A stretch of DNA of 64,000 nt from Candidatus Poribacteria bacterium (GTDB lineage Bacteria > Poribacteria > WGA-4E > WGA-3G). Under the pieces are notes generated by a model. That model worked only from the letters and a program-made list of their open reading frames with translations. It searched no databases and was not told the DNA's origin. The position numbers and the translations under genes were made by a program. The first letter of the stretch is position 1, and each line of letters opens with the position of its first letter. Below are positions 1,026-14,264 of this stretch, piece after piece. The stretch covers positions 224,001 through 288,000 of the forward strand of contig CBDBFU010000013.1 of the NCBI GenBank assembly GCA_965205025.1. The letters run 5' to 3'.

Positions 1026-3968
1026 ATGGCAAGAGATAAGAGAGAGAAAGAGGTTAAGGATTACCGACACGACTCATCAACACGAAAGAATAACCCACCC
1101 GCTGGTATCGCTGGACAGGCGAGAACACCCGAAACTCCCAAACAGGAATACGCATATAATCCACATTTACCACCCATATTGCGCTCCGATCCGAACGGTG
1201 ATGTAGACAAACTTCACGAACTCCTCGAAAGAGCACAGAAACAACCCCTCACATCAGAAGAGGCGAAAAGAATTGCGGATGCACTCAAACATCATGAACC
1301 GTGGTTAGAATGGTCAGGGAAACAAGAAGCAAAATCCTTTACTGTTGACCCAGTTGCATTGCATGTGCATGAACGCGTGAGTGCAAAAGCAATTTTAAAG
1401 GTAGCAGAACGTGAAAATGTCCAACGCCAACTCTTTGCTGACCCACAGCAGACATATAACGAGGCGGTCGAGTTTTACAAGCACGATGTGGATTGGGCAA
1501 ATAGGCTAATTCTTGGGGATAGTCTGATGGTGATGAGTTCTCTTGCGAAACGTGAAGATCTTGCTGGTAAAGTACAGATGATTTACATTGATCCACCCTA
1601 CGGTATTAATTTCTCTTCTAATTTTCAATCAACAGTATTCCAACGTGATGTAAAGAATAGAGACCAAGATTTGACGCGTGAAGCAGAACAGGTAAAGGCA
1701 TACCGTGACACATGGACACTCGGTATACATTCCTACCTTGCATATCTCCGTGATAGGTTAATTGTTGCCAAAGATTTGTTGACAGATAGCGGGAGTATCT
1801 TTGTGCAAATTAGTGATGAGAATGTTCATCGGGTAAGGGTTATAATGGATGAAGTGTTTGGTAGTAAAAATTTCTATGCTATGATAAATTTCAGAAGCAT
1901 GAGTCCTTTGGGACAAAAAGGAATCGCTCGAATTTATGATTATATCATGTGGTATGCCAAGGATATAGATCAGATAAAATTTAGACCGCTGTTCTTTTAT
2001 AGAGACTTAATGGATGAATCAGAGTTCTCTTTTCTTGATAGAGGTGACGGAACCTATGAGAAATTGCCAAGATCCGATATCCAAAATCTATCCTCTGAAC
2101 AATTGCATAAGGTATTTAAGAGATCAGTTCTAACATCTTCTGGATATACACCATCTTGCACCTATGATTTCAAATATGAGGGGAGTACATTTAGTCCGTT
2201 AAGTCGTAAAAGTTGGCGTACAACTTTAGATGGAAATAGACGTTTATCATTAGCTAAAAGGCTTTTAATCTTAGGAAAGAATCTCTACTATCGGCAATAT
2301 CATAGTGACTTTCCATTAATTCAGATGGAAAATAGTTGGACAGATACTGCCGCTGGATTTAGCGATTCTAAACGATATGTTGTTGAAACTAATCCAAAAA
2401 TAATTCAACGCTGCTTACATATGACTACTGATCCTGGGGACCTTGTCCTTGATCCTACCTGTGGTAGTGGTACTACTGCCTATGTGGCTGAGCAGTGGGG
2501 TCGACGGTGGATTACAATTGACACCAGTCGGGTTTCTCTTGCATTAGCACGACAACGTCTGTTAACAAGTAGTTTCGAGTATTATGAACTGAAAGATGAA
2601 ATGAGTGGTGTTGCAAGAGGATTTATTAATAAAGTCGCACCACACATCACGCTCAGAAGCATTGCCCAAAACACCGCCCTTGACCCTATCTTTGAAAAGC
2701 ATGAACCCATTCTTAAAGAAAAATTGGATACATTGAATAGTGCTTTGGTTGAAATTACAGACGACATCCGATCGAAACTCCTTGCGAAACTTGTAGAGAA
2801 AGAAAAACGCGATGGGAAAAGATCCATCACAGAGGCAGATAGACGACGATGGCAACTACCAGAAACGGAATGGCAGGAGTGGGAAGTGCCGTTTGACACC
2901 GATCCGGATTGGACGGATGCATTAAAGAAAGCGTTGACCGATTATAGAGAAGCATGGCGTGCAAAGATGGATGAGGTAAATGAATGTATTGCTGCTGCCT
3001 CTGATGGTGAGGAGTTGGTTGACCAACCAGAGATAGACAGAAGACGAATTCGTGTGAGTGGTCCCTTTACTGTGGAAGCGGTGCAGCCTCCTGAAGAATA
3101 TCTTGATATGGAGTCTCCTATCGGTGGAGAACCCGAAGAATTGGACGAAACATTTGATGAAACTGAAAATGATACACACGAAGATGTGAATGCAGAGGCG
3201 TATCTTGACAAAATGATTCGTCTTTTACGTGAAGATGGTGTGAAGTTTCCTGATGATAATAAACAGAAATTCGCTACGCTGAATCCTTTTGATGGTGGTA
3301 TTTTACACGCTGAAGGGAGTTGGGAAAATGGTGATTCGGATCGACGGGTTGCGGTCGCGTTCGGTCCACAACACGGACCTGTGACCGCAGTACAGGTTGA
3401 ACAGTGTGTACGTGCAGCATATCGAAATGCATTTGATGATCTTATATTTGCAGGTTTTAGTTTTGATGGTGCAGCACAAGCTGCCATTCAAGACGATCTG
3501 AATCCGAGTGTACGTATCCACATGGCTAATATCAGTCCTGATGTGGTGATGGATGACCTCCTGAAGAATACTTCCTCCACGCAATTGTTTACGGTGTTCG
3601 GATTGCCGCGTACAACCCTTGAGAAACAAGACAATGGTGAGTATGTTATTACGATGGAAGGGGTGGACATTTATAATCCTGTGGATAACACCTTGAGTTC
3701 TGCTGGTGCGGATAAGGTGGCAGCATGGTTTCTTGATTCTGATTATGATGGTCGAACTTTCTGTATTACGCAAGCGTTCTTTCCTGACAGAAAGGCATGG
3801 GACAAAATTGCGCGTGATCTTAAGGGTGTGATTGACGCGGAGAGTTTTGAGATGTTCAGTGGAACAGAATCGTTACCATTTCCTATGGGGCAACATAGAT
3901 GTGCTGCCGTTAAAGTCATTGATCCGCGCGGGAATGAGGTGATGCGGGTGCATAATTTGGATGCGTAG
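1026..3968 (+). CDS. mod: Type III-like restriction-modification DNA adenine methyltransferase (Mod, beta class)
   Basis: Motif IV YIDPPY precedes motif I VLDPTCGSGTT; long C-terminal region ending AVKVIDPRGNE, typical of Mod partners of the Res at 11289. Confidence 0.9.
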   Translation: MARDKREKEVKDYRHDSSTRKNNPPAGIAGQARTPETPKQEYAYNPHLPPILRSDPNGDVDKLHELLERAQKQPLTSEEAKRIADALKHHEPWLEWSGKQEAKSFTVDPVALHVHERVSAKAILKVAERENVQRQLFADPQQTYNEAVEFYKHDVDWANRLILGDSLMVMSSLAKREDLAGKVQMIYIDPPYGINFSSNFQSTVFQRDVKNRDQDLTREAEQVKAYRDTWTLGIHSYLAYLRDRLIVAKDLLTDSGSIFVQISDENVHRVRVIMDEVFGSKNFYAMINFRSMSPLGQKGIARIYDYIMWYAKDIDQIKFRPLFFYRDLMDESEFSFLDRGDGTYEKLPRSDIQNLSSEQLHKVFKRSVLTSSGYTPSCTYDFKYEGSTFSPLSRKSWRTTLDGNRRLSLAKRLLILGKNLYYRQYHSDFPLIQMENSWTDTAAGFSDSKRYVVETNPKIIQRCLHMTTDPGDLVLDPTCGSGTTAYVAEQWGRRWITIDTSRVSLALARQRLLTSSFEYYELKDEMSGVARGFINKVAPHITLRSIAQNTALDPIFEKHEPILKEKLDTLNSALVEITDDIRSKLLAKLVEKEKRDGKRSITEADRRRWQLPETEWQEWEVPFDTDPDWTDALKKALTDYREAWRAKMDEVNECIAAASDGEELVDQPEIDRRRIRVSGPFTVEAVQPPEEYLDMESPIGGEPEELDETFDETENDTHEDVNAEAYLDKMIRLLREDGVKFPDDNKQKFATLNPFDGGILHAEGSWENGDSDRRVAVAFGPQHGPVTAVQVEQCVRAAYRNAFDDLIFAGFSFDGAAQAAIQDDLNPSVRIHMANISPDVVMDDLLKNTSSTQLFTVFGLPRTTLEKQDNGEYVITMEGVDIYNPVDNTLSSAGADKVAAWFLDSDYDGRTFCITQAFFPDRKAWDKIARDLKGVIDAESFEMFSGTESLPFPMGQHRCAAVKVIDPRGNEVMRVHNLDA

Positions 3969-3971
3969 AGG

Positions 3972-4010
3972 TTGTCTGAATCGCAGATTTCACGGATTTC
4001 ACGGAGAAGA
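3972..4010 (+). repeat. 9-bp tandem CACGGATTW-type repeat; related copies about 8220-8259, 14359-14388 (-), 62901-62948 (-)
   Basis: TTGTCTGAATCGCAGATTTCACGGATTTCACGGA and related copies. Confidence 0.75.
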
Positions 4011-4083
4011 GGATTATACCATTTTCAATTGATACACTTACATTATGACTTACGTAATTCAATGATCATCATATACATATAAT

Positions 4084-4235
4084 GAGTCCCGGGGAATGCC
4101 TAAATGGCATTCATACCCGGGGAATGCTAAATAGCATTCATACCGTTGATTCCTTGATTTGGTAGGGACGGAATGTCTATAGAAAACGTGTTTAGCCACT
4201 ATCTTGAGTCCCGTAGGGACGGAATGTCTATAGAA
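4084..4235 (+). repeat. GAGTCCCGTAGGGACGGAATGTYTATA hairpin doublet with a 71-nt insertion (4091-4161); other copies 770-846, 8559-8633, 50878-50957, 62267-62381 (-)
   Basis: 4162-4232 is essentially identical to 8564-8633. Confidence 0.9.
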
Positions 4236-4257
4236 AACGTACTGACCCTAAACAATA

Positions 4258-4333
4258 AGCCCCATCGGGGCGAAAGGTTTGTAGAAAAGCATATAAAAAA
4301 TGAGGTTCAGCCCCAGCGGGGCGAAAGGTGTGT
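4258..4333 (+). repeat. AGCCCC-NNN-GGGGCGAAAGGT hairpin doublet; other copies about 6011-6084, 6286-6360 (-), 8143-8217 (-), 8364-8437, 62017-62194 (-)
   Basis: Six doublets with the same architecture are visible. Confidence 0.9.
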
Positions 4334-4455
4334 CGAAACATAATGTCTGAAGAGAAAACTCACGAATTATATGATTTTATACAGCAATGCAGTGATGAAA
4401 CGCATTTGTGTATTGTGAGCTTTATTTTTAGATAAATACAAACGGAGGTAAAAAC

Positions 4456-4878
4456 ATGAGCATTATAATGCCAACTGGTAAAAGTGGAATATTCGGAGAC
4501 CTAAAACAACATGGCAGAGCACGCGCAGTCTTACCAATCCTTATACTCCGCGCACAAGAACATAATACCATCACTTTCGGAGAATTAGGAAATGCTATCG
4601 GTTTCCGACGCTATGATCTCTTTGGTGGTATTCTTGACTGTATCAACACAGAACTTCATGGAATAAACACAGATCTTCCAACGCTATCAACAATTGTTGT
4701 TAGAAAAAACAATGACGGAAATAAGGAACCGAGTAGTTGGATGGCAAATCAGATGCGGGAACAGTTGAATTTGGAGCCTACGTGGGAGAATTACCACCGT
4801 ATCTGCATTCAACCTGTTTTTGATTATCCAGACTGGGATAAGGTTATGAACGAAATTATCCAGTCACAAAATTGGTGA
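4456..4878 (+). CDS. Hypothetical protein, possibly a winged-HTH like N-terminal domains of restriction nucleases
   Basis: GGAGG RBS; TITFGELGNAIG...LPTLSTIVV pattern; function is inference. Confidence 0.65.
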   Translation: MSIIMPTGKSGIFGDLKQHGRARAVLPILILRAQEHNTITFGELGNAIGFRRYDLFGGILDCINTELHGINTDLPTLSTIVVRKNNDGNKEPSSWMANQMREQLNLEPTWENYHRICIQPVFDYPDWDKVMNEIIQSQNW

Positions 4879-4946
4879 TAAAGTGTGATGTGTCTAAAAT
4901 ATTTTACTTGGCAATATGTCTAACACATGCTTTTCAATATTCATTT

Positions 4947-5138
4947 TTATTCTTTGCGTATATCTTTGTAAACTAAATTTTGCAGTATGACATTAAGTAA
5001 TAAAATAATTAACGTTTCATTTGTGTTGTGTGAACCTTCGTAAAAAATATTATCTATAACCTGAAAGGTAAAAATACCGAAAAATATAAGCAGGGTTATG
5101 CTAAAAAAAATAAACATAACTTTGTAAAATTTATTCAT
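4947..5138 (-). CDS. Small two-TM membrane protein (paralog of 5231-5446)
   Basis: AAGGA RBS, two hydrophobic stretches, shared IDNIFYEGS..ET motif with its neighbour. Confidence 0.7.
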   Translation of the reverse strand: MNKFYKVMFIFFSITLLIFFGIFTFQVIDNIFYEGSHNTNETLIILLLNVILQNLVYKDIRKE

Positions 5139-5153
5139 TTTTTAATCCTTACA

Positions 5154-5190
5154 GTTTCCATTCCCTTCAAACGGGAAAGTAGTTCCGATC
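5154..5190 (-). CRISPR. Solitary CRISPR-repeat-like 37-mer GATCGGAACTACTTTCCCGTTTGAAGGGAATGGAAAC; degenerate second copy 5467-5503
   Basis: 37 nt, TTCCC/GGGAA stem, 3' ATGGAAAC handle; no canonical array or cas genes in the window. Confidence 0.55.
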
Positions 5191-5230
5191 TTGACAATAT
5201 GTCTAATACATGCTTTTTCAATATTCATTT

Positions 5231-5446
5231 TTATTCTTTGCCTATATCTTTGGCATCTAATTTTTGTAGTATAGTAAATAATAACATCATAATAGCTATT
5301 AATAATACAATAATAACTGTTTCACTTATATTGGATGAACCTTCGTAAAAAATATTATCTATTAACTGCAAGATAAAAACCCCGACACATATAAAAAAGG
5401 CTATGGGACATAAAATAAACATAACTCTGTATTGTTTTTTAGACAT
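5231..5446 (-). CDS. Small two-TM membrane protein (paralog of 4947-5138)
   Basis: Tandem duplication of a roughly 280-300 bp unit including 3' flank and upstream repeat. Confidence 0.7.
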   Translation of the reverse strand: MSKKQYRVMFILCPIAFFICVGVFILQLIDNIFYEGSSNISETVIIVLLIAIMMLLFTILQKLDAKDIGKE

Positions 5447-5659
5447 TTTAATTTTTAATCCTTACGGTTTCACTTCCCTCCAAATGGGAAAGAATTTTTA
5501 CCATCCCATTCTTCATACTTCCACTTCTCCAGCCTTCTATTCAAATTCGGTTCAAAAAGTACACTACATTAACAATTATATCAAGAAAAAATGAAATTCA
5601 CTATCTTATTAATATAGTTTGGACAATTATCAGATGTTTTAGGTTGACCTAATACTACT

Positions 5660-5963
5660 ATAGTTTGGACAATTTTAGACATAGCACTCCGCTGGAGCAA
5701 GACGCACAACTTATCTGTGTGTTAGATGTGATCAATAGAGAACTAACTACACCGGCCTTACGATGTCTCCTCACGCCAGCGGCGTGATATGTCTATAGAA
5801 ATAAAAGGCAGAAAACCCCGCACTCCAGCGGAGTGCTATGTAGAGATGTCCGCTTTGGACATAAATATGCTTTTCAGTCATTTATACCGACCCTAAAACT
5901 ATCAGGAAAACAGAGAAACCCTTGAAACACGACATGAGACCGACAGAAACTGTCCAAAATATA
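5660..5963. mobile_element. MITE-like shell with TAGTTTGGACA...TGTCCAAA termini carrying hairpin doublets
   Basis: Imperfect terminal inverted repeats; the same left end recurs at about 5615 and 61994. Confidence 0.5.
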
Positions 5964-6740
5964 GTATGCGATATTAACTTGTAGAAAATCTATCATATAC
6001 AAATAAGAACAGCCCCAGCGGGGCGGAAGGTGTGTAGAAAACGACGGATAGGAAAAACTAAGCCCCGGAGGGGCGAAAGGTGTATTGGAAAAACATAATG
6101 CCTGAAAAGAAAACCCACGAATTATATGACTTCATTCAACAGTGCACCGATGAGATGTCTACAGAATATGAACGGATTTATAAAGATCAACTGAAAATTA
6201 AGGATCGCTGGGAATCAATGAGAAGAAAATTGAGATGATTATTACGTGGCTGGCTTCCTTGCAACATCAACGTCAATTTAAGAATACACCTTTCGCCCCG
6301 CTGGGGCTTTATACATTGGGTTTCAACGTTTTCTATAAACCTTTCGCCCCGCTGGGGCTTTTAACAGGGTTATTTAGTTTTAAGAATTATCAGTAAATTA
6401 GTATTACCGATAATTTATTTCGTAGATTGGGTTGAACCGTAGGTGAAACCTAACATTTCCTGTATGTCTAGGGTTACATGTTGCTTTTTATAGAAATGTG
6501 AAAAAATATAGAAGTAAAACCGAAAACTAAATAACCCTGGAAGTCGTGGATAAACATGGATTAAGTATAGTAAATAATGCTATAATTTCTGGCATGTGTT
6601 CGTAGAATTCCAATCCACGAAACTGAAATTCAGCGAGCAGCGCGTCCGGACGTTAAAATACATTGACTTTCCACCCAAATTATCACATAATACTATATTA
6701 CCAAATATTGTACAGATAGGCTTTATTGGAGGATCAAGAC

Positions 6741-7076
6741 ATGGACCATATCCAAACATTCAAAATTCATGACGTGGAAGATGGCGAGATCTATACCGCA
6801 AAAATCCAAAAAAATGGCAAGAAGTGGATGGGGTGGATACAGGAATACCCCAAAGTCAAGTGTGAGGCAGATACACAAGACGCATTACTGGAAATCCTCG
6901 AAAACACGCTTTATCAAAGCCTTGAAGCAGATTGGCAAGCATGGGACAAACAATTAGAGGCAGACGTAAGAGCAGGAAAACTTGACACTATCCTTGAACG
7001 AGTCAGTGCTGACTTTCATGCGGGTAAATGTGAAGACTTAAGGGTATTTCTTTCAAAGAAAGCCGCTGAGGAGTAG
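6741..7076 (+). CDS. Putative antitoxin (HicB-like N-terminus)
   Basis: GGAGG RBS before ATG6741; YTAKI..WMGWIQEYP pattern; WDKQLEADVRAGKLD C-terminus; upstream of toxin; TTGACT...CATAAT promoter-like site near 6663. Confidence 0.75.
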   Translation: MDHIQTFKIHDVEDGEIYTAKIQKNGKKWMGWIQEYPKVKCEADTQDALLEILENTLYQSLEADWQAWDKQLEADVRAGKLDTILERVSADFHAGKCEDLRVFLSKKAAEE

Positions 7077-7149
7077 AGTGCTGCGTCTAAAATTTTGAAA
7101 CTTGCCATATTTCGTTTTAACCTACGCAAATCGAAACGTGCAAAGAAAT

Positions 7150-7404
7150 ATGAACAACCATGTCATAAACGACGATTTCTGGGCTGCGTACAACAACCTA
7201 CCACAAAACGTTCAAAGAAGCACACTCCGGAAAATTGAATTGTTACTTGAAAATCCTATGCACCCTTCTCTCTACTTTAAAAAGGTTGGTAGGCTTTGGT
7301 CAGCACGAATCAATAAGCAATATCGTATTCTGGCGCGCGAAGAAGAAGGCACTTTAGTCTGGTATTGGGTCGGAAAACACGACGAGTATATGAGACAGAT
7401 ATGA
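7150..7404 (+). CDS. RelE/ParE-like toxin
   Basis: NPMHPSLYFKKVGRLWSARINKQYRILA...WYWVGKHDEY; start likely ATG7150. Confidence 0.85.
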   Translation: MNNHVINDDFWAAYNNLPQNVQRSTLRKIELLLENPMHPSLYFKKVGRLWSARINKQYRILAREEEGTLVWYWVGKHDEYMRQI

Positions 7405-7479
7405 TGCATTAGCGTAGATTCACCCATTTCCATCCCACCTCAAAATATCCCTTCCTGATTTACCCAAAGTATATTTATT

Positions 7480-8040
7480 AAAAAAAATAAAATAAATTGA
7501 AGAAAATATAAATATCTAACATCTAACATACATATTTCACAATAATATAAAAATAAAGCATATATATTTGTCAAAATAAAAATAAAATTGTATAATACTA
7601 TATCGTTCAATAATTGTAAACTAACGCATTTTGGAGTTGATACCCAAATCATGATTTTCCGTAGTCTAAAAAATCAGATAAATAGGATTATCAAATTGAA
7701 TTACACGGCAAATTTTTTTAGTTTTTCAAATTTTAAAATTTTACACCGATTCATCAAATCCTCTGTTATCCCAACCCCCAACAGGGTTTACAGCCTATTA
7801 AAAAGTCATTTCCTAAAAACCGACTCAAAAAACTTGAAAAACTTGAAAATGGATGGTTAAGTTATTTCATATAAAAACGACTCCCAAACAATGGATAAAA
7901 GGAAAAGTAAAAGACACAAAATCCATCAATTGTGCAAATTCTTGTAACCTTAAAACAGTGGCTGTAAGCCCAGTGTAGTACTGACGGGATAAGGGTTTTC
8001 CCAATGTTACACGATGTAACGAAAAGTGCAACTTTTGAAA
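7480..8040 (+). repeat. AT-rich non-coding dispersed element, copy 1 (copy 2 about 49851-50575 minus; copy 3 about 63040-63655 plus)
   Basis: Shared blocks such as TACTATATCGTTCAATAATTGTAAACTAA, TTACACCGATT.ATCAAATCCT.TGTTATCCCAA and CCCAGTGTAGTACTGACGGGA. Confidence 0.85.
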
Positions 8041-8908
8041 ACAATATGAAATATTAAATATTACAACTGTGAAAGCGAAAGAGAGTAAATTTACAGAATA
8101 ATTACCCTTGGATTAATATAAGTTTGTACAATTTTAAGCGATACACATTTCGCCCCTCTGGGGCTTTGGGTTAGTAGTTTAGCACATTTTCTACAAACAT
8201 TTCGCCCCTCTGGGGCTTTCTGAATCACGGATTACACGGATTACGCGGATTTCACGGATGGGTTTTTTGGTTGTTTAGTGGTTCTTGACTTGTGATTGGG
8301 TTTATCTGGGACGACGGGTTATAAGTGTATGTATCAAAATAGTGTTATCTTTTCGAAATTGGCAGCCCCAGAGGGGGAAAGTGTGTAGAAAACGGAATAG
8401 TCCAAAACAATAAGCCCTGGAGGGGCGAAAGGTGTGTAAAAACATAATCAAGAATACCTATAATGAGTTGTACTAAATAACTTTTAGTATTAGTAACCAA
8501 TAGTTTCACATAAATAATGGCTGGTATGAATACCCTTCATTAGTTGGCATTATCTTTAGTCCCGTAGGGACGGAATGTCTATAGAAAACGTGTTTAGCCA
8601 CTATCTTGAGTCCCGTAGGGACGGAATGTTTATATATTGAAACGTAATACCACTTCTAAAATGTTGCTTACTCATTATACATTGAAGAAACACCCTAATT
8701 TCACTTTATCAGGGGATTACTAAGAATACCCGTAATGTAAACTATTTAAATAGAAATGGTATAATAATGCAAGCTCGATGTAGGGTCCACTCGGATTTGA
8801 GAGAAAATATCTAAATCGGTAATATGAAGTGCGGAGTGTAGGTTATAGACAAAGTAGAACAAAATTAAAATACATGAATTCTATTTCTCAAAATGGAGAT
8901 ACTAAATT

Positions 8909-9832
8909 ATGCAAGAATTTGGCACATTAAAAACGACAGACCTGCGGAAATCTTGGAAACGCGAGGATAAAGACTTTACACCATGGTTATCAAAAAACTT
9001 GAAATTGTTAAGCAAAGCGTTGGATATGGATCTTGAGTTTGTTGATGAACACATCAATGTCGGACGGTATGAATGTGATTTACTCTGTAGGAACAAGCGT
9101 GATAACTCATTTGTAGTCATTGAAAATCAGTTAGAAGAAATGGATCATGATCATCTTGGTAAAGCATTGGTTTATACGACTGGATTACATGCCGAAACAG
9201 TCATCTGGATAGCAGAAGACTTTACGAATGAACATCGAAAAACAATTGATAGGTTGAATGAAATTACCCATGATTATATCCAGTTTTTTGGTGTACAGCT
9301 TGAAGTAATTCAGATTGATGATTCCCGCATTGCCCCAAAGTTTAATGTTATCGTGAAACCGGATAACTGGATACCTCATATAATACTAAGTGATGACTAC
9401 TGGGAGAGATTTAAACACTACTTGGAACAACACAAGAGTAACCTTGAAGTACTGAAATGGACAGCAGGAAAAAATTATCTCGGTTTCTACTTGGGATATG
9501 ATGTGAATGATGGTCAGAGACCTAAATACTGGATTGCAGCAGGTAAGAGCGGTGGATTTCTCGCTGCAACTTTCTGCATTGATAAACAAAAACTTCCGGA
9601 TATCATGCAATGGTTTAAGAATAATCGTCAGGTTGTGGACCAAATATTCACTGAGAATTTTCCTGAGAAACCTAAGAGACCCAATATTCCCTTTAATGTG
9701 GTTGGAGTTACACGGAAGTTAAATAATCAGATAAAAGAGGAGCAAGAGTTTGAATGGTTTCGTGAAAAACTTGAGAACTTAGAGAAGTTATTTAAGCATG
9801 GCGGGGAGATTGATTTTTTATCAGATGAGTAA
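8909..9832 (+). CDS. DUF4268-type protein with N-terminal PD-(D/E)XK-like nuclease domain
   Basis: DLRKSWKRE..DFTPWL, DLLC...VVIENQL...DHDHLGK motifs. Confidence 0.8.
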   Translation: MQEFGTLKTTDLRKSWKREDKDFTPWLSKNLKLLSKALDMDLEFVDEHINVGRYECDLLCRNKRDNSFVVIENQLEEMDHDHLGKALVYTTGLHAETVIWIAEDFTNEHRKTIDRLNEITHDYIQFFGVQLEVIQIDDSRIAPKFNVIVKPDNWIPHIILSDDYWERFKHYLEQHKSNLEVLKWTAGKNYLGFYLGYDVNDGQRPKYWIAAGKSGGFLAATFCIDKQKLPDIMQWFKNNRQVVDQIFTENFPEKPKRPNIPFNVVGVTRKLNNQIKEEQEFEWFREKLENLEKLFKHGGEIDFLSDE

Positions 9833-10040
9833 TCACAGAAATGGGTATGTGTACATTAATATAAAGAAATCAATTGTGTCAGACTTTGTCCTGTGATACT
9901 ACACTATATACATCTTTTGTTTAGAGGTATTTAGTTTTCGACTTTTCAGGCGAATTTCGTCACAAATGTAAATGCAATAGAATTGTATCGTAGGTTTGGA
10001 TGAGAAATGAAACACAACCTAAAAGATAAACTGGAAATAC

Positions 10041-10065
10041 GGTTCGGTTAGAAACCGAACCTACC
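10041..10065 (-). repeat. GTAG-tagged REP family B (GGTAGGTKCGGTTTCYTAACCGMAC); copies about 14454-14478, 17515-17539, 50799-50824
   Basis: GTAG tetranucleotide plus GC hairpin, repeated. Confidence 0.85.
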
Positions 10066-10150
10066 GAGGGGTGGGAAAGATCTGGGATCGGAATCCCTAC
10101 AGAATGTTGGTACTATGTATTAGAAGTGTCAATTTAGGAGTCTGTGGAGA

Positions 10151-11311
10151 ATGAAGTTAAATATCGTCTTTTTCATTTTGATAGTATTATTAGGAATCAC
10201 GGTTTCAGTTGCAATTGCCCAGCAAAATGGTGATGTTCCAAAAACGGACAAGGAAGTTGAGAAACTCAAAATCCAACTTCAGACTGTGGAAAATGAGAAG
10301 ATGGAGGCAGAAACGAAACTTGCTGAGGCAAATACAAAACTCATAAATGCTGAGTTTGGCAAGTTTGAGAGGGAATTGCGAGATTCTAATAATAAATGGT
10401 TATGGGGATGGACAGGATTCTTTGTTGGGATTGTAGCGATTATTGGAATAGCTTTATGGTTTTCAGTAAAATCATTGATTGTAGATAGAGTTGAAAAGAG
10501 CCTAAACGGATTTAAGGATGCCGTTAAAAAAGTGGAAGAATTACGAGATCAATTGAGATATTTACTAAGAGAAAACGCTGTAGCTGTATTAGGAGACTTT
10601 TCTGCGGGTATTCTTGTGGAATTAGACAAGCACACTAAAGAAGTCAAAGCACTATCAAAAGAAGTACTTATGGATGTATTCAACGATAAAACACGTGATT
10701 TAAGTTACAGATGGCTTGCTGCAGAGATATTTGTTGCAAGGGAATACACTGATCTTGTTGCACCAGTACTAAACTTCCTAAAGGATATTATAAAATCAAA
10801 TGATTTTGATAGAATTTATATCTTTCCTTATGATCCCCAGTATCACATACGTAGTTTGGTATACCCAATTGGAAAAATACATACACAGGACACTTACAAA
10901 AACTTAAGAAATTTCATAATTTTTCTTCAAAATGAGAATCCAAAAAATAAAGATTCATGGATTGCATGGACTGCACATTCATTCGCTTCGGTTAGTGTGG
11001 CATTGAATAAAACAGATTCAACGGTTATCCTTATAGAGTCTATACCAGATTGGGATTTTTCTACACAAGTTCCTATACAAGAAAAGGAAGCCTTAACAGA
11101 TCTGATCTATAACTTCAATTCATTGCATGTTCCTAATGGAATAAAAGCAATATTAACAAATAGTTTAACAGATAACATGCCCGATGTAGAAGAAAAATGT
11201 TTAGAGTTATTGCAAGAACACGACCCAAAATTTGTAAGAGAATGGAAAGAGGAGAAAAAAGAAACTAACGAGGAAAATGAGGAGAATAATGAATCAGAAC
11301 CAACAACTTGA
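10151..11311 (+). CDS. Membrane protein (signal/TM, coiled coil, TM, helical domain)
   Basis: Long ORF, GGAG RBS, hydrophobic segments; overlaps the res start. Confidence 0.8.
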   Translation: MKLNIVFFILIVLLGITVSVAIAQQNGDVPKTDKEVEKLKIQLQTVENEKMEAETKLAEANTKLINAEFGKFERELRDSNNKWLWGWTGFFVGIVAIIGIALWFSVKSLIVDRVEKSLNGFKDAVKKVEELRDQLRYLLRENAVAVLGDFSAGILVELDKHTKEVKALSKEVLMDVFNDKTRDLSYRWLAAEIFVAREYTDLVAPVLNFLKDIIKSNDFDRIYIFPYDPQYHIRSLVYPIGKIHTQDTYKNLRNFIIFLQNENPKNKDSWIAWTAHSFASVSVALNKTDSTVILIESIPDWDFSTQVPIQEKEALTDLIYNFNSLHVPNGIKAILTNSLTDNMPDVEEKCLELLQEHDPKFVREWKEEKKETNEENEENNESEPTT

Positions 11312-14264
11312 TATCCCAATTCAACCAGTAGAACAACCTATCTTATGCAGTCCGTATGAAGAACCAGTAGAACACTGGAGATATGACACTGAAAATGGGG
11401 AAGCCGTTAAACACCCCGGAAGACGTGAAGCGGGGTATTGGTATAAAACAGAACGTACCGGTAGTGCTCAACTCGGTCTTTTTCAGGAAGAGGAACGTGA
11501 CGATCTACCGATTGTAAACGAACTACGTGCAGATGTAAAACGATGGCGCGAGACGAATTATCGTAACGCCACAAATGTCACCCGTGAATTACTTAGACAT
11601 TGGTCACGCGATGATCTTTTACGCCGTCTCTTTTTCTGTCAACGCGAAGCAGTTGAAACTATCATATACCTCGTTGAGATACGTCAAGGTGGGAAACGCC
11701 TCGGTTTTAATCCGACTTTTACCGATGAGAAATTGGCGAAGTTAGTGGATACACCGAATGATCCCGGTCTTTCGGAGCTGATACGTTACGGGTGTAAAAT
11801 GGCAACCGGTAGTGGTAAGACTGTTGTTATGGCAATGTTAATCGCTTGGGCATTTTGCAACCGTGGTAGATTTCCTTCTGATGACAGATTTCCACACGCA
11901 GCACTTATCGTTTGTCCGAACTTGACAATCAAAAAACGGTTACAGGTATTACGTCCAGATGAAACTGATAATTACTACGACGAATTTGAACTTATCCCAA
12001 CGAAACTACGTCCCTTGCTAAACAGTGGTAAGGTGTTGATAAACAATTGGCATCAATTTTCACTTGAGTCTGAACATAGTGAAGGCGGACAATCTTATAC
12101 GGTTGTGAACAAAGGCGAGGAAACGCCGGATGCTTTTGCAAAACGTGTCTTGGGTGAACTGTACGACCGTGCACCAATTATGGTGTTGAATGACGAGGGA
12201 CATCACGCCTATCGTCCTGCACCGACGGATGAAAAACTTTCCGCTGAGGAGAAGAAGGAACGTCAAGAAGCCACGGTGTGGGTAAGTGGATTGGATAGGT
12301 TCAATCAGTCGTGTGGTGTTAAGTTCTGTGTGGATCTCTCTGCCACACCGTTTTACATTCAAGGGAGTGGATATGCAGAAGGTACACCGTTCCCTTGGCT
12401 TGTGAGTGATTTCGGTTTAGTAGATGCAATTGAAAGTGGTATCACAAAAATTCCGCGTTTACCTACGAGTGATACGACGGGTAGACCGGAACCGAAGTAT
12501 TTTCGGTTGTGGAAAGCGATTAACGATGAAATTCTACCTGCGGAACGATTACGAAATAAGAAACCTAAACCGGAAGCAGTATACCGAGTAGCTGAGGACG
12601 CACTTAACACGATTGCGAGTCAATGGAAAGAACGGTTTGATTATATTCAGGAGGCATCGGACGAACAGGATAAAACGCCGCCAGTACTTATCATCGTTTG
12701 TGATAACACGGATATTGCAGAGCATTTCTACCGTATGATTTCAGGTGAACGAGAGGTAGAAGTGCTTGATGAAAAACGCAAGGTCAAGACACAGATAGAA
12801 TTTGAACAGGGGAAGGTCTTTCCCAATTTGCTTGGGAATACACACAGTGTTACGCATACAATACGAATTGATAGTAAAGTATTGGATGAGGTGGATAGTG
12901 ATGATCCAACCAAGAGTCGTAGTCAAGCAGAAGAGGATCTCCGTGAAGTCGTTGCCACAATAGGGAAAAAAGGAAAACCGGGAGCGAATATACGATGTGT
13001 GGTATCTGTGGCAATGCTTAACGAGGGATGGGATGCTAATAACGTCACACATATTCTGGGTATACGTGCTTTTACCAGTCAATTGCTTTGTGAACAGGTC
13101 GTCGGAAGGGCATTACGTCGAATGAATTACACACCAGATCCTGAAACGCAAAAACTCACAGAGGAATACGCTGATGTGTATGGTATTCCGTTTTCTGTAA
13201 TTCCTTTCAAGGGTAGGGCAACTAAGAAACCTGAAGAGGGTGACAGACCTGTTAACCACGTGCGTGCATTACCCGCACGGTCAGTTTATGAGATACGGTT
13301 TCCAATTGTAGAGGGATATGCTTTTGCTTTACGGAAGTACGAGATAAAGGCTGATATTGAATCTATGGATGTGTTGCGTCTTGAACCTGAATACACCCCA
13401 ACCGCTGTTTTTCTTGAAGCGACTACGGGATATCAGATTGGAGAAATTTCGGGGGCACGTCCAGGTGGGTTTGTTAGACAGGATCGAGAACAATTCTATC
13501 GGCAAACACACTTACAAACGATTAAGTTTGAAATTGCACAACGGATTGTCTATAGATTGGTTGGTGATAAGAATAGTGCGCCAGATCCAAATAGCAACCC
13601 GGAACTCCGTCTGATCTCTCGGCACAGGTTATTTCCACAGGTATTCAGGTATGTTGATGCCTATATTGAGAATAAGGTTGATTTTCGCGGTTGTAATCCG
13701 TGTGAACTCGGACTTGAGAAGTATGTTATGTGGATCGTTGATCGTCTGATGACAGCAATTCTGCCCGATAATTCAGAAGGTGAAGTGCCGTTGCTTCCGA
13801 TTTTAGATCGGTATAAACCTGTCGGTACATCGGCAGATGTTGATTTCTTTACAACACGTCCATGTCATGGGGCATACCGTAGTCATGTAAATCAAGTTGT
13901 GTTGGATACAGCAACATGGGAACAATCTGCATGTTTCTACTTGGAAGCATCGGAGGTCGTGAAATACTATGTACGGAATGATCATCTCGGTTTGAGTATA
14001 CCGTATGAAAACCTTGGAATTACCCATAATTATGAACCTGATTTTATTGTTAGACTTATAGATAATACCAACGTACTTTTGGAAACGAAAGGGTTTAAAA
14101 GACAATTAGAATCATTGAAAAGTGAGGCTGCGAGGAGATGGGTTGCTGCAGTGAATAATTGGAATCGTGAACGGCTTGGAGAACTGGAGCAACAGGGGAA
14201 GTGGGTGTTTCATGTATGTGATGATCCACAATTGTTAGAAGAGGAATTGGAAGGGTTGGTGTAG
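11289..14264 (+). CDS. res: Type III-like restriction endonuclease Res (SF2 helicase + PD-(D/E)XK nuclease)
   Basis: KMATGSGKT, LNDEGHH, EQVVGRALRR, C-terminal YEPDFIV...LLETKG; GAGGAG RBS favours ATG11289. Confidence 0.9.
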   Translation: MNQNQQLDIPIQPVEQPILCSPYEEPVEHWRYDTENGEAVKHPGRREAGYWYKTERTGSAQLGLFQEEERDDLPIVNELRADVKRWRETNYRNATNVTRELLRHWSRDDLLRRLFFCQREAVETIIYLVEIRQGGKRLGFNPTFTDEKLAKLVDTPNDPGLSELIRYGCKMATGSGKTVVMAMLIAWAFCNRGRFPSDDRFPHAALIVCPNLTIKKRLQVLRPDETDNYYDEFELIPTKLRPLLNSGKVLINNWHQFSLESEHSEGGQSYTVVNKGEETPDAFAKRVLGELYDRAPIMVLNDEGHHAYRPAPTDEKLSAEEKKERQEATVWVSGLDRFNQSCGVKFCVDLSATPFYIQGSGYAEGTPFPWLVSDFGLVDAIESGITKIPRLPTSDTTGRPEPKYFRLWKAINDEILPAERLRNKKPKPEAVYRVAEDALNTIASQWKERFDYIQEASDEQDKTPPVLIIVCDNTDIAEHFYRMISGEREVEVLDEKRKVKTQIEFEQGKVFPNLLGNTHSVTHTIRIDSKVLDEVDSDDPTKSRSQAEEDLREVVATIGKKGKPGANIRCVVSVAMLNEGWDANNVTHILGIRAFTSQLLCEQVVGRALRRMNYTPDPETQKLTEEYADVYGIPFSVIPFKGRATKKPEEGDRPVNHVRALPARSVYEIRFPIVEGYAFALRKYEIKADIESMDVLRLEPEYTPTAVFLEATTGYQIGEISGARPGGFVRQDREQFYRQTHLQTIKFEIAQRIVYRLVGDKNSAPDPNSNPELRLISRHRLFPQVFRYVDAYIENKVDFRGCNPCELGLEKYVMWIVDRLMTAILPDNSEGEVPLLPILDRYKPVGTSADVDFFTTRPCHGAYRSHVNQVVLDTATWEQSACFYLEASEVVKYYVRNDHLGLSIPYENLGITHNYEPDFIVRLIDNTNVLLETKGFKRQLESLKSEAARRWVAAVNNWNRERLGELEQQGKWVFHVCDDPQLLEEELEGLV

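Follow-up and report, generated by a model that had tools for sequence, protein, structure and literature searches.

Two tandem units with a CRISPR-type repeat before each gene

We analysed a 64,000-nt stretch of a Candidatus Poribacteria contig (the window), which belongs to a genome of 5.66 Mb in 33 contigs that is 95.5% complete (G000). The minus strand between 4907 and 5583 holds two tandem units, each running from a CRISPR-type repeat through AAGGA and an ATG into a small membrane-protein ORF. The features are listed here in the order in which the minus strand is read.

5575–5583, minus: extended −10-like site TGATATAAT, ~95 nt upstream of the predicted Cas6 site in R1
5504–5560, minus: leader element GAACCGAATT.GAATAGAAGG..., upstream of R1, conserved in the sister genome G079
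5467–5503 (core 5467–5491), minus: R1, a decayed solitary CRISPR-type repeat, stem-loop and AGTGAAAC handle in the core
between 5475 and 5474, minus: predicted cut of the cognate Cas6 in R1
5459–5463, minus: AAGGA, Shine-Dalgarno-like, of gene 1, inside the 20 nt after R1
5231–5446, minus: gene 1, 71-aa two-helix membrane protein, ATG at 5446; the ortholog is a 73-aa ORF in G079
5191–5233, minus: tail 1, 43 nt, past the gene 1 stop and abutting R2, 40/44 identical to tail 2
5154–5190, minus: R2, a full-length solitary CRISPR-type repeat with handle ATGGAAAC
between 5162 and 5161, minus: predicted cut of the cognate Cas6 in R2
5146–5150, minus: AAGGA, Shine-Dalgarno-like, of gene 2, inside the 15 nt after R2
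4947–5138, minus: gene 2, 63-aa paralog with an in-frame 7-codon gap in helix 2, ATG at 5138
4907–4949, minus: tail 2, a copy of tail 1, with no third repeat after it

Both repeats have the same sense as the genes, and the 15–20 nt that separate each of them from its ATG contain the ribosome-binding site. The tandem minus-strand duplication that the sequence-only reading had claimed was confirmed: the families D1, D3, D5 and D9 are spaced 283–313 nt apart and the two-unit alignment has a mean column identity of 82%. From R1 to R2 the distance is 313 nt start to start, with a 275-nt interval between them. The 15 nt past the repeat are identical at 14/15 positions between the units, and the core together with the Shine-Dalgarno block at 35/40, against 150/192 aligned CDS positions.

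The promoter-like site was read by eye. It is absent from the listing of our consensus scan because its −35 is poor, but it lies within a block that is near-identical in G000 and G079. Two other ideas were dropped: a homology of the tails to the leader element, for which the likeness was unconvincing, and a 28-codon ORF running through R2, which is not kept in unit 2. On the plus strand at 5474–5498, the R1 hairpin in reverse complement runs into AGAATTTTTA, giving a terminator-like score; the matching G079 flank has an even longer T-run. This site could halt transcription from a convergent 140-aa ORF.

R1 and R2 belong by sequence to a CRISPR repeat family of the genus

R2 matches the 37-nt array repeat of a same-genus genome (G059) at 32/37 positions, and at 25/25 over the 3′ core that comprises stem-loop and handle. 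When every position of G000 was scored against the relatives' 37-nt repeat, the next best site after R2 reached 27/37. R1 scored 25/37, which one other G000 site equals, and R1 is therefore recognisable only by its core and its homologous position. A repeat-like site on contig C9 (27/37) was dropped as apparently lying in coding sequence. Between R1 and R2 the core agrees at 21/25 positions and the 5′ half at 4/12. The sequence-only reading had placed a 37-nt repeat at 5190–5154 and a second copy that matched at 22/26 with its stem preserved; coordinates, identity and stem all proved correct. The TTCCC/GGGAA stem is intact in R1, in R2 and in the R1 of G079, and stem-loop and 8-nt handle ending GAAAC are present in both G000 repeats, the handle being ATGGAAAC in R2, as in G059, and AGTGAAAC in R1.

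The core pattern with at most 3 mismatches occurs twice in the window, and two matches were seen in 0/100 shuffles. Across all 33 G000 contigs, the strict core was found only at the R1 and R2 sites. The best Rfam match of R2 was CRISPR-DR10, over all 37 positions, at a sub-threshold 19.1 bits (E 0.2; gathering score 39). The stability of the repeat hairpins is unremarkable, with z-scores of 0.44, −1.06 and −1.22.

In the order, the core pattern is found in 59/159 genomes, mostly in arrays of 10–89 copies. Within the genus, the arrays of G059 have a core identical to R2, and the array repeats of five other genomes (G061, G083, G089, G091 and G055) are 87–89% identical to R2 over 36–40 nt, those of G061, G089 and G091 being a variant that ends in ATTGAAAC. 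The pair itself lacks array features: the repeats are spaced by 313 nt, not by spacers of 30–45 nt, and there is no likeness to a leader. The element upstream of R1 was ruled out as an array leader of the genus, being unlike the conserved ones, and no array leader was found near the locus or anywhere in G000. Judging from these matches, we conclude that R1 and R2 are genuine CRISPR repeats belonging to the type I / III-A family that Cas6 serves in this genus.

The matching machinery is present in congeners and lost from both carriers

Cas6 of this kind cuts 8 nt before the 3′ end of the repeat. G059, G061 and G091 each encode a single intact Cas6 of 250 aa, in which Pfam recognises the Cas6_C and Cas6_I-A N-terminal domains; the Pfam family of the congeners' Cas6 is PF01881. 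The locus of G061 reads cas6-cas8(CXXC)-cas7-cas5-cas3, then cas10/csm2-csm5, a csm6-like gene, cas4 and cas1. A single Cas6 thus serves both the type I and the III-A module. The csm2 of this locus (L068:8244–8894) encodes an N-terminal cold-shock domain (Pfam CSD and Csm2_III-A).

No Cas1, PF10040 Cas6 or RAMP protein was found in the 33 contigs of G000 (95.5% complete), and a k-mer periodicity scan of this genome detected no array; the rows of the scan showed at most 6 periodic copies bearing words of the genome's hairpin repeats, and were not individually inspected. Of the cas genes in three relatives' loci, G000 retains only a cas6 stub of 40 codons (C31:9734–9853), which matches the C-terminal 40 residues of the G061 Cas6 at 82.5% identity. 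The stub region (C31:9686–9853; locus L001, ~1500–1680) has stops upstream and no other cas gene nearby. When the ORFs of at least 150 aa from the 20-kb stretch of the G061 locus were searched against G000 by tblastn, only the Cas6 end and two domain matches from outside cas genes were returned.

In the sister genome G079 we found no PF01881 match, no RAMP genes and no array of the R1/R2 repeat. It does carry a type I-D-like and a type I-B-like CRISPR-Cas locus, whose repeats are different. G000 lacks the cas genes of both loci but still holds one lone copy of each of their repeat families, on the minus strand at C16:41011–41047 and C15:216892–216921, with 3 and 1 mismatches. The C15 copy is followed ~190 nt on by a degenerate second copy, with a hairpin-repeat insertion between the two, and the genes flanking the I-B-like locus in G079 are still present in G000. 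The absence of cas genes combined with lone repeats of these further families indicates that the G000 lineage has purged three CRISPR-Cas loci.

The sequence-only reading had proposed comparing the 37-mer with genuine arrays of the same genome, and had named the lack of a matching repeat or cas6 in the host lineage as evidence against it. Matching arrays and cas6 are present in the genus, where the G059 core is identical and intact cas6 genes are found, but not in the carriers: G000 has no array and only the 40-codon stub, and G079 has no PF01881 match. With neither carrier encoding a matching Cas6, processing by the matching enzyme, or action as a decoy, is impossible in them today. For G000, where array, Cas1, RAMP proteins, PF10040 and cas genes are all missing, the earlier suggestion of such activity is not supported.

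The repeat-before-gene arrangement predates the split from the sister genome

G079 has the only ortholog with readable DNA, and it keeps the promoter block, the leader, R1 and the gene; the expectation of the sequence-only reading that homologs retain the upstream repeat held there. About 170 nt upstream of the ATG are ~95% identical between G000 and G079, against ~84% for the CDS. The G079 unit lies in the syntenic place, beside a fragment of the same methylase gene, and has been retained even though the restriction-modification island around it is mostly absent. The G079 gene is followed by a second leader copy and then by a canonical but truncated repeat core. The comparison of the two genomes thus shows that the arrangement is older than the split between them.

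Between G000 and G079, the repeats differ at 3/25 positions in the R1 core and at 0/20 in R2, and dS is ~0.10. The divergence of the repeats is not below dS, so there is no sign of present constraint on them.

Lone repeats and adjacent genes elsewhere in the order

A reading to be weighed here is that R1 and R2 are neutral debris, scars of array collapse or repeat-mediated recombination that happened to lie beside a small gene, were copied by the tandem duplication and never played a part in expressing that gene. We regard it as a somewhat doubtful explanation, albeit one with several observations behind it. Arrays that have decayed or collapsed are frequent across the order, and the other lone repeats of G000, on C16 and C15, have no gene behind them. 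The 5′ half of R1 is gone and the repeat changes at a roughly neutral rate, and the matching Cas6 is missing in both carriers. The comparison of G031 with G038 offers a clear case of an array collapsed to one repeat: a secreted-protein gene that in G038 (L013) lies behind an array of 31 repeats is preceded in G031 (L011) by a leader and a single repeat. In G049, a housekeeping oxidoreductase begins 20 nt past the terminal repeat. Among the listed repeat ends with no next repeat within 90 nt, 18/46 have an ORF of at least 40 aa that starts within 80 nt, both numbers being inflated by overlapping loci; closeness of a repeat and a gene can therefore arise accidentally.

Four points argue against debris. 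No array leader is found near the locus or elsewhere in G000. The interval between the repeats, 275 nt, is not a spacer. There are three distinct junctions, namely leader with R1 and tail with R2 in G000, and the second leader copy with the truncated repeat in G079. Finally, G079 kept the unit despite the deletion of the flanking island.

In G083, the same ~140-aa ORF (VNSLDYSQREV...) starts 3 nt past the repeat end at L028:13141 and at L031:11389, two distant arrays of one genome. This ORF may represent an element inserting next to CRISPR repeats.

The genes encode a rare two-helix membrane protein

The sequence-only reading had described 15–20 nt containing AAGGA followed by the ATG of 63–71-aa ORFs with two transmembrane segments, and we found the same. 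Kyte-Doolittle windows show two hydrophobic helices in the ORFs, and an AlphaFold2 model (mean pLDDT 74) predicts a helical hairpin with helices at residues 3–35 and 40–70. Gene 1 and gene 2 are 59% identical across the in-frame 7-codon gap. A profile search of 1.84 billion representatives returned 6 proteins at E ≤0.001: the G000 and G079 forms, a frameshifted G079-like form and three distant metagenome proteins of 63–77 aa. The short form of gene 2 is shared with the metagenome homologs P0006–P0008. In the 6/6 aligned proteins, whose identity to gene 1 goes down to 27%, N..F....N..ET is invariant between the helices; 4/6 read N.FYEGS.N..ET, and the other two have FFDGS and FFDAT. The frame kept across a 7-codon indel and the invariant loop motif indicate that the ORF is a real gene.

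The gene family is confined to 2/159 genomes of the order and to 2 real carriers among 176 in the phylum. A family-wide DNA search for the whole unit likewise returned 2/112 genomes, G000 and G079. Additional weak profile matches in the phylum (G118 and G079:C46) were discarded as noise, both having stops, no repeat and no ORF. A scan of metagenome and genome contigs with a degenerate loop motif gave 11 and 7 loci, respectively, and the sole family member among them was the G079 contig. All metagenome members of the family are ENA singletons, P0005–P0008 being found in one contig each.

The protein has no Pfam family, with sub-threshold matches to SUR7 and DUF6320 only, and no PHROGs or PADLOC match; its best Atlas score was 0.85. 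Over the few sites available, dN/dS was 0.9 between the paralogs and 2.0 between unit 1 and G079, the latter from 4 synonymous and 30 non-synonymous differences. Constraint thus appears confined to the loop and the tail, and overall selection looks relaxed or diversifying. The earlier label "toxin-like", derived only from size and hydrophobicity, is unsupported; from size, topology and neighbourhood only, we lean towards a membrane-acting defence or toxin-like effector. A search for sequencing runs covering 4400–5700 returned no RNA run and two DNA-type runs of one study.

A small membrane-spanning protein would suit a CRISPR guard that acts like CreTA at the RNA level. Cas6 and the Cas7 backbone would cover the ribosome-binding site and start, silencing a membrane toxin, which loss or inhibition of CRISPR-Cas would then free. 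The ribosome-binding site begins 3–4 nt past the handle, inside the stretch that a crRNA guide would occupy, and CRISPR-repressed protein toxins (CrePA) are described in bioRxiv 10.1101/2024.01.05.574328. The ORFs are intact in both system-less carriers, which contradicts a lethal guard unless the toxin had already been disabled. Moreover, the locus is not beside cas genes and includes no mini-array with a normal spacer. Such a guard is in our view highly unlikely.

The units lie in a chromosomal defence island

The defence-island setting claimed earlier is borne out by the genes on either side of the units:

1026–3968: type III methylase, the flank of the units at lower coordinates
7102–7404: ParE-like toxin, with a 116-aa ORF upstream, between the methylase and restriction genes
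8909–9832: PDC-S11 candidate defence gene, between the methylase and restriction genes
11277–14264: type III restriction subunit, the other flank of the units

The methylase and restriction genes (window 1026–14264) are 7.3 kb apart, and the interval also holds hairpin repeats, the small-gene units and a 386-aa coiled-coil membrane ORF that overlaps the start of res. Direct repeats of ~155 nt at 4242–4398 and 5995–6153 (84% identical over 63 nt) bracket the 140-aa ORF and both units, delimiting a segment at 4336–6153. A small ORF (M.E.KTHELYDFIQQC.DE) begins within each of them and runs for 30 codons in the first copy and 46 in the second.

The bracketed segment could be taken for a mobile cassette, which is where a decoy of the Racr kind would fit. 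Here the promoter-leader-repeat RNA would soak up Cas6 and Cas7 of the type I / III-A system in any host that the cassette enters, and the ORF would be co-transcribed cargo. The layout fits the solitary repeat units described in PMC10651486. There, the inhibitory part of RacrIF1 is the RNA upstream of the Cas6 cut, of ~70–76 nt; the leader predicted here is ~95 nt. Against a decoy, PHROGs assigned no known phage function to 7 neighbouring proteins, the one match, on the PDC-S11 gene, being of unknown function. No viral contig carried the repeat core or the membrane protein, and 0/390 array spacers compared with the locus match it. The unit is shared vertically with G079 in its syntenic place, and the target system is missing in both carriers. 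We consider a decoy unlikely.

Among the 390 spacers, the only match longer than 21 nt was that of a G083 spacer (L029, 11025) to G000 C33:21992–22020, at 26/29; going by this match, the site may be a protospacer.

Interpretation

We tentatively favour, at a probability of roughly 0.4, the reading that R1 and R2 are orphaned repeats of the lineage lying in the 5′ leaders of the genes, which would have been Cas6 substrates in ancestors, the mRNA being cut at both handles, and which would be idle today. The ancestral transcript would probably start at the extended −10 near 5575–5583 and probably run through both units. A matching Cas6 would cut it 8 nt short of the end of each repeat (5475/5474 and 5162/5161), releasing crRNA-shaped mRNAs that consist of an 8-nt handle followed by the ribosome-binding site and the ORF, and the R2 hairpin would form the 3′ end of the processed gene 1 mRNA. 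Such processing would link the expression or stability of the membrane protein to whether CRISPR-Cas is present. Today, translation would occur from unprocessed RNA only, with the repeats drifting at about the neutral rate.

Several observations count against the Cas6-substrate reading: both known carriers are without the proposed Cas6 partner, the repeats show no sign of present constraint, the dN/dS of the gene is 0.9–2.0, lone repeats are ordinary debris, as on C15 and C16 in G000 and in G031, and a repeat can come to lie near a gene start by accident. A more elaborate version, in which the genes are giant "spacers", Cas6 carves out the mRNA and handle-loaded Cas proteins gate its translation, would make the locus an addiction or guard cassette that outlived its CRISPR-Cas; we hold this to be quite improbable. 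With the CRISPR machinery lost from this genome, the CRISPR link is probably inherited history, not a working circuit. The interpretation offered by the sequence-only reading, a coupling of CRISPR machinery to small membrane effectors, is in part supported, in that the repeats are those of the lineage's CRISPR systems, and in part not, as the machinery is missing from G000.

If Cas6 does process or gate an mRNA through a repeat before its ribosome-binding site, CRISPR-derived RNA regulation would be extended. Such regulation is now known for guide-like RNAs (CreA, crRNA-like RNAs and Racr), and control of an effector message would be an addition. Even as a relic, the locus shows a genome purged of three CRISPR-Cas loci in which lone repeats of all three families persist, one of these families having been fixed in the leader of a gene. 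It also offers a concrete and cheap test set of two RNAs, one Cas6 and one small ORF.

Comparison with known systems

Class II holins and type I toxins are small two-helix membrane proteins. The proteins described here resemble them in their 63–71 aa, two hydrophobic helices, basic N-terminus and charged C-terminal tail. They differ in having no Pfam, PHROGs or PADLOC family match, and no lysis genes lie near the two units.

CreTA modules are mini-arrays with a spacer-sized guide that lie beside cas operons and act by promoter repression. [quoted passage not shown] The likeness to CreTA and CrePA (10.1101/2024.01.05.574328) is that of a degenerate repeat beside a candidate toxic gene, together with the notion of a toxin under the control of CRISPR proteins. 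crRNA-like regulators are treated in 10.1101/2024.10.29.618823.

In PMC10651486, Racr loci are described as solitary repeat units just past a promoter and away from cas genes, in some cases sharing a transcript with the gene of a small protein (racrIC1-acrIC5). The units of G000 share with these a lone repeat outside arrays and away from cas genes, and a small gene on the predicted transcript. The promoter that such units have within 250 bp upstream would here be the extended −10-like site read by eye. Unlike Racr, they occupy a defence island of the chromosome, their hosts lack the matching system, and no virus, prophage or plasmid carrier was found, either by PHROGs on the 7 neighbours or among viral contigs. 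They also differ from racrIC1-acrIC5, whose repeat is described there as lying 11 nt downstream of the ORF, in that the repeat here is upstream of the ribosome-binding site.

With decayed or collapsed arrays the locus has in common that lone repeats of three families remain in a genome without cas loci. It differs from them in that no array leader accompanies R1 and R2, and in that these repeats go together with a duplicated gene unit, along with which they have been inherited.
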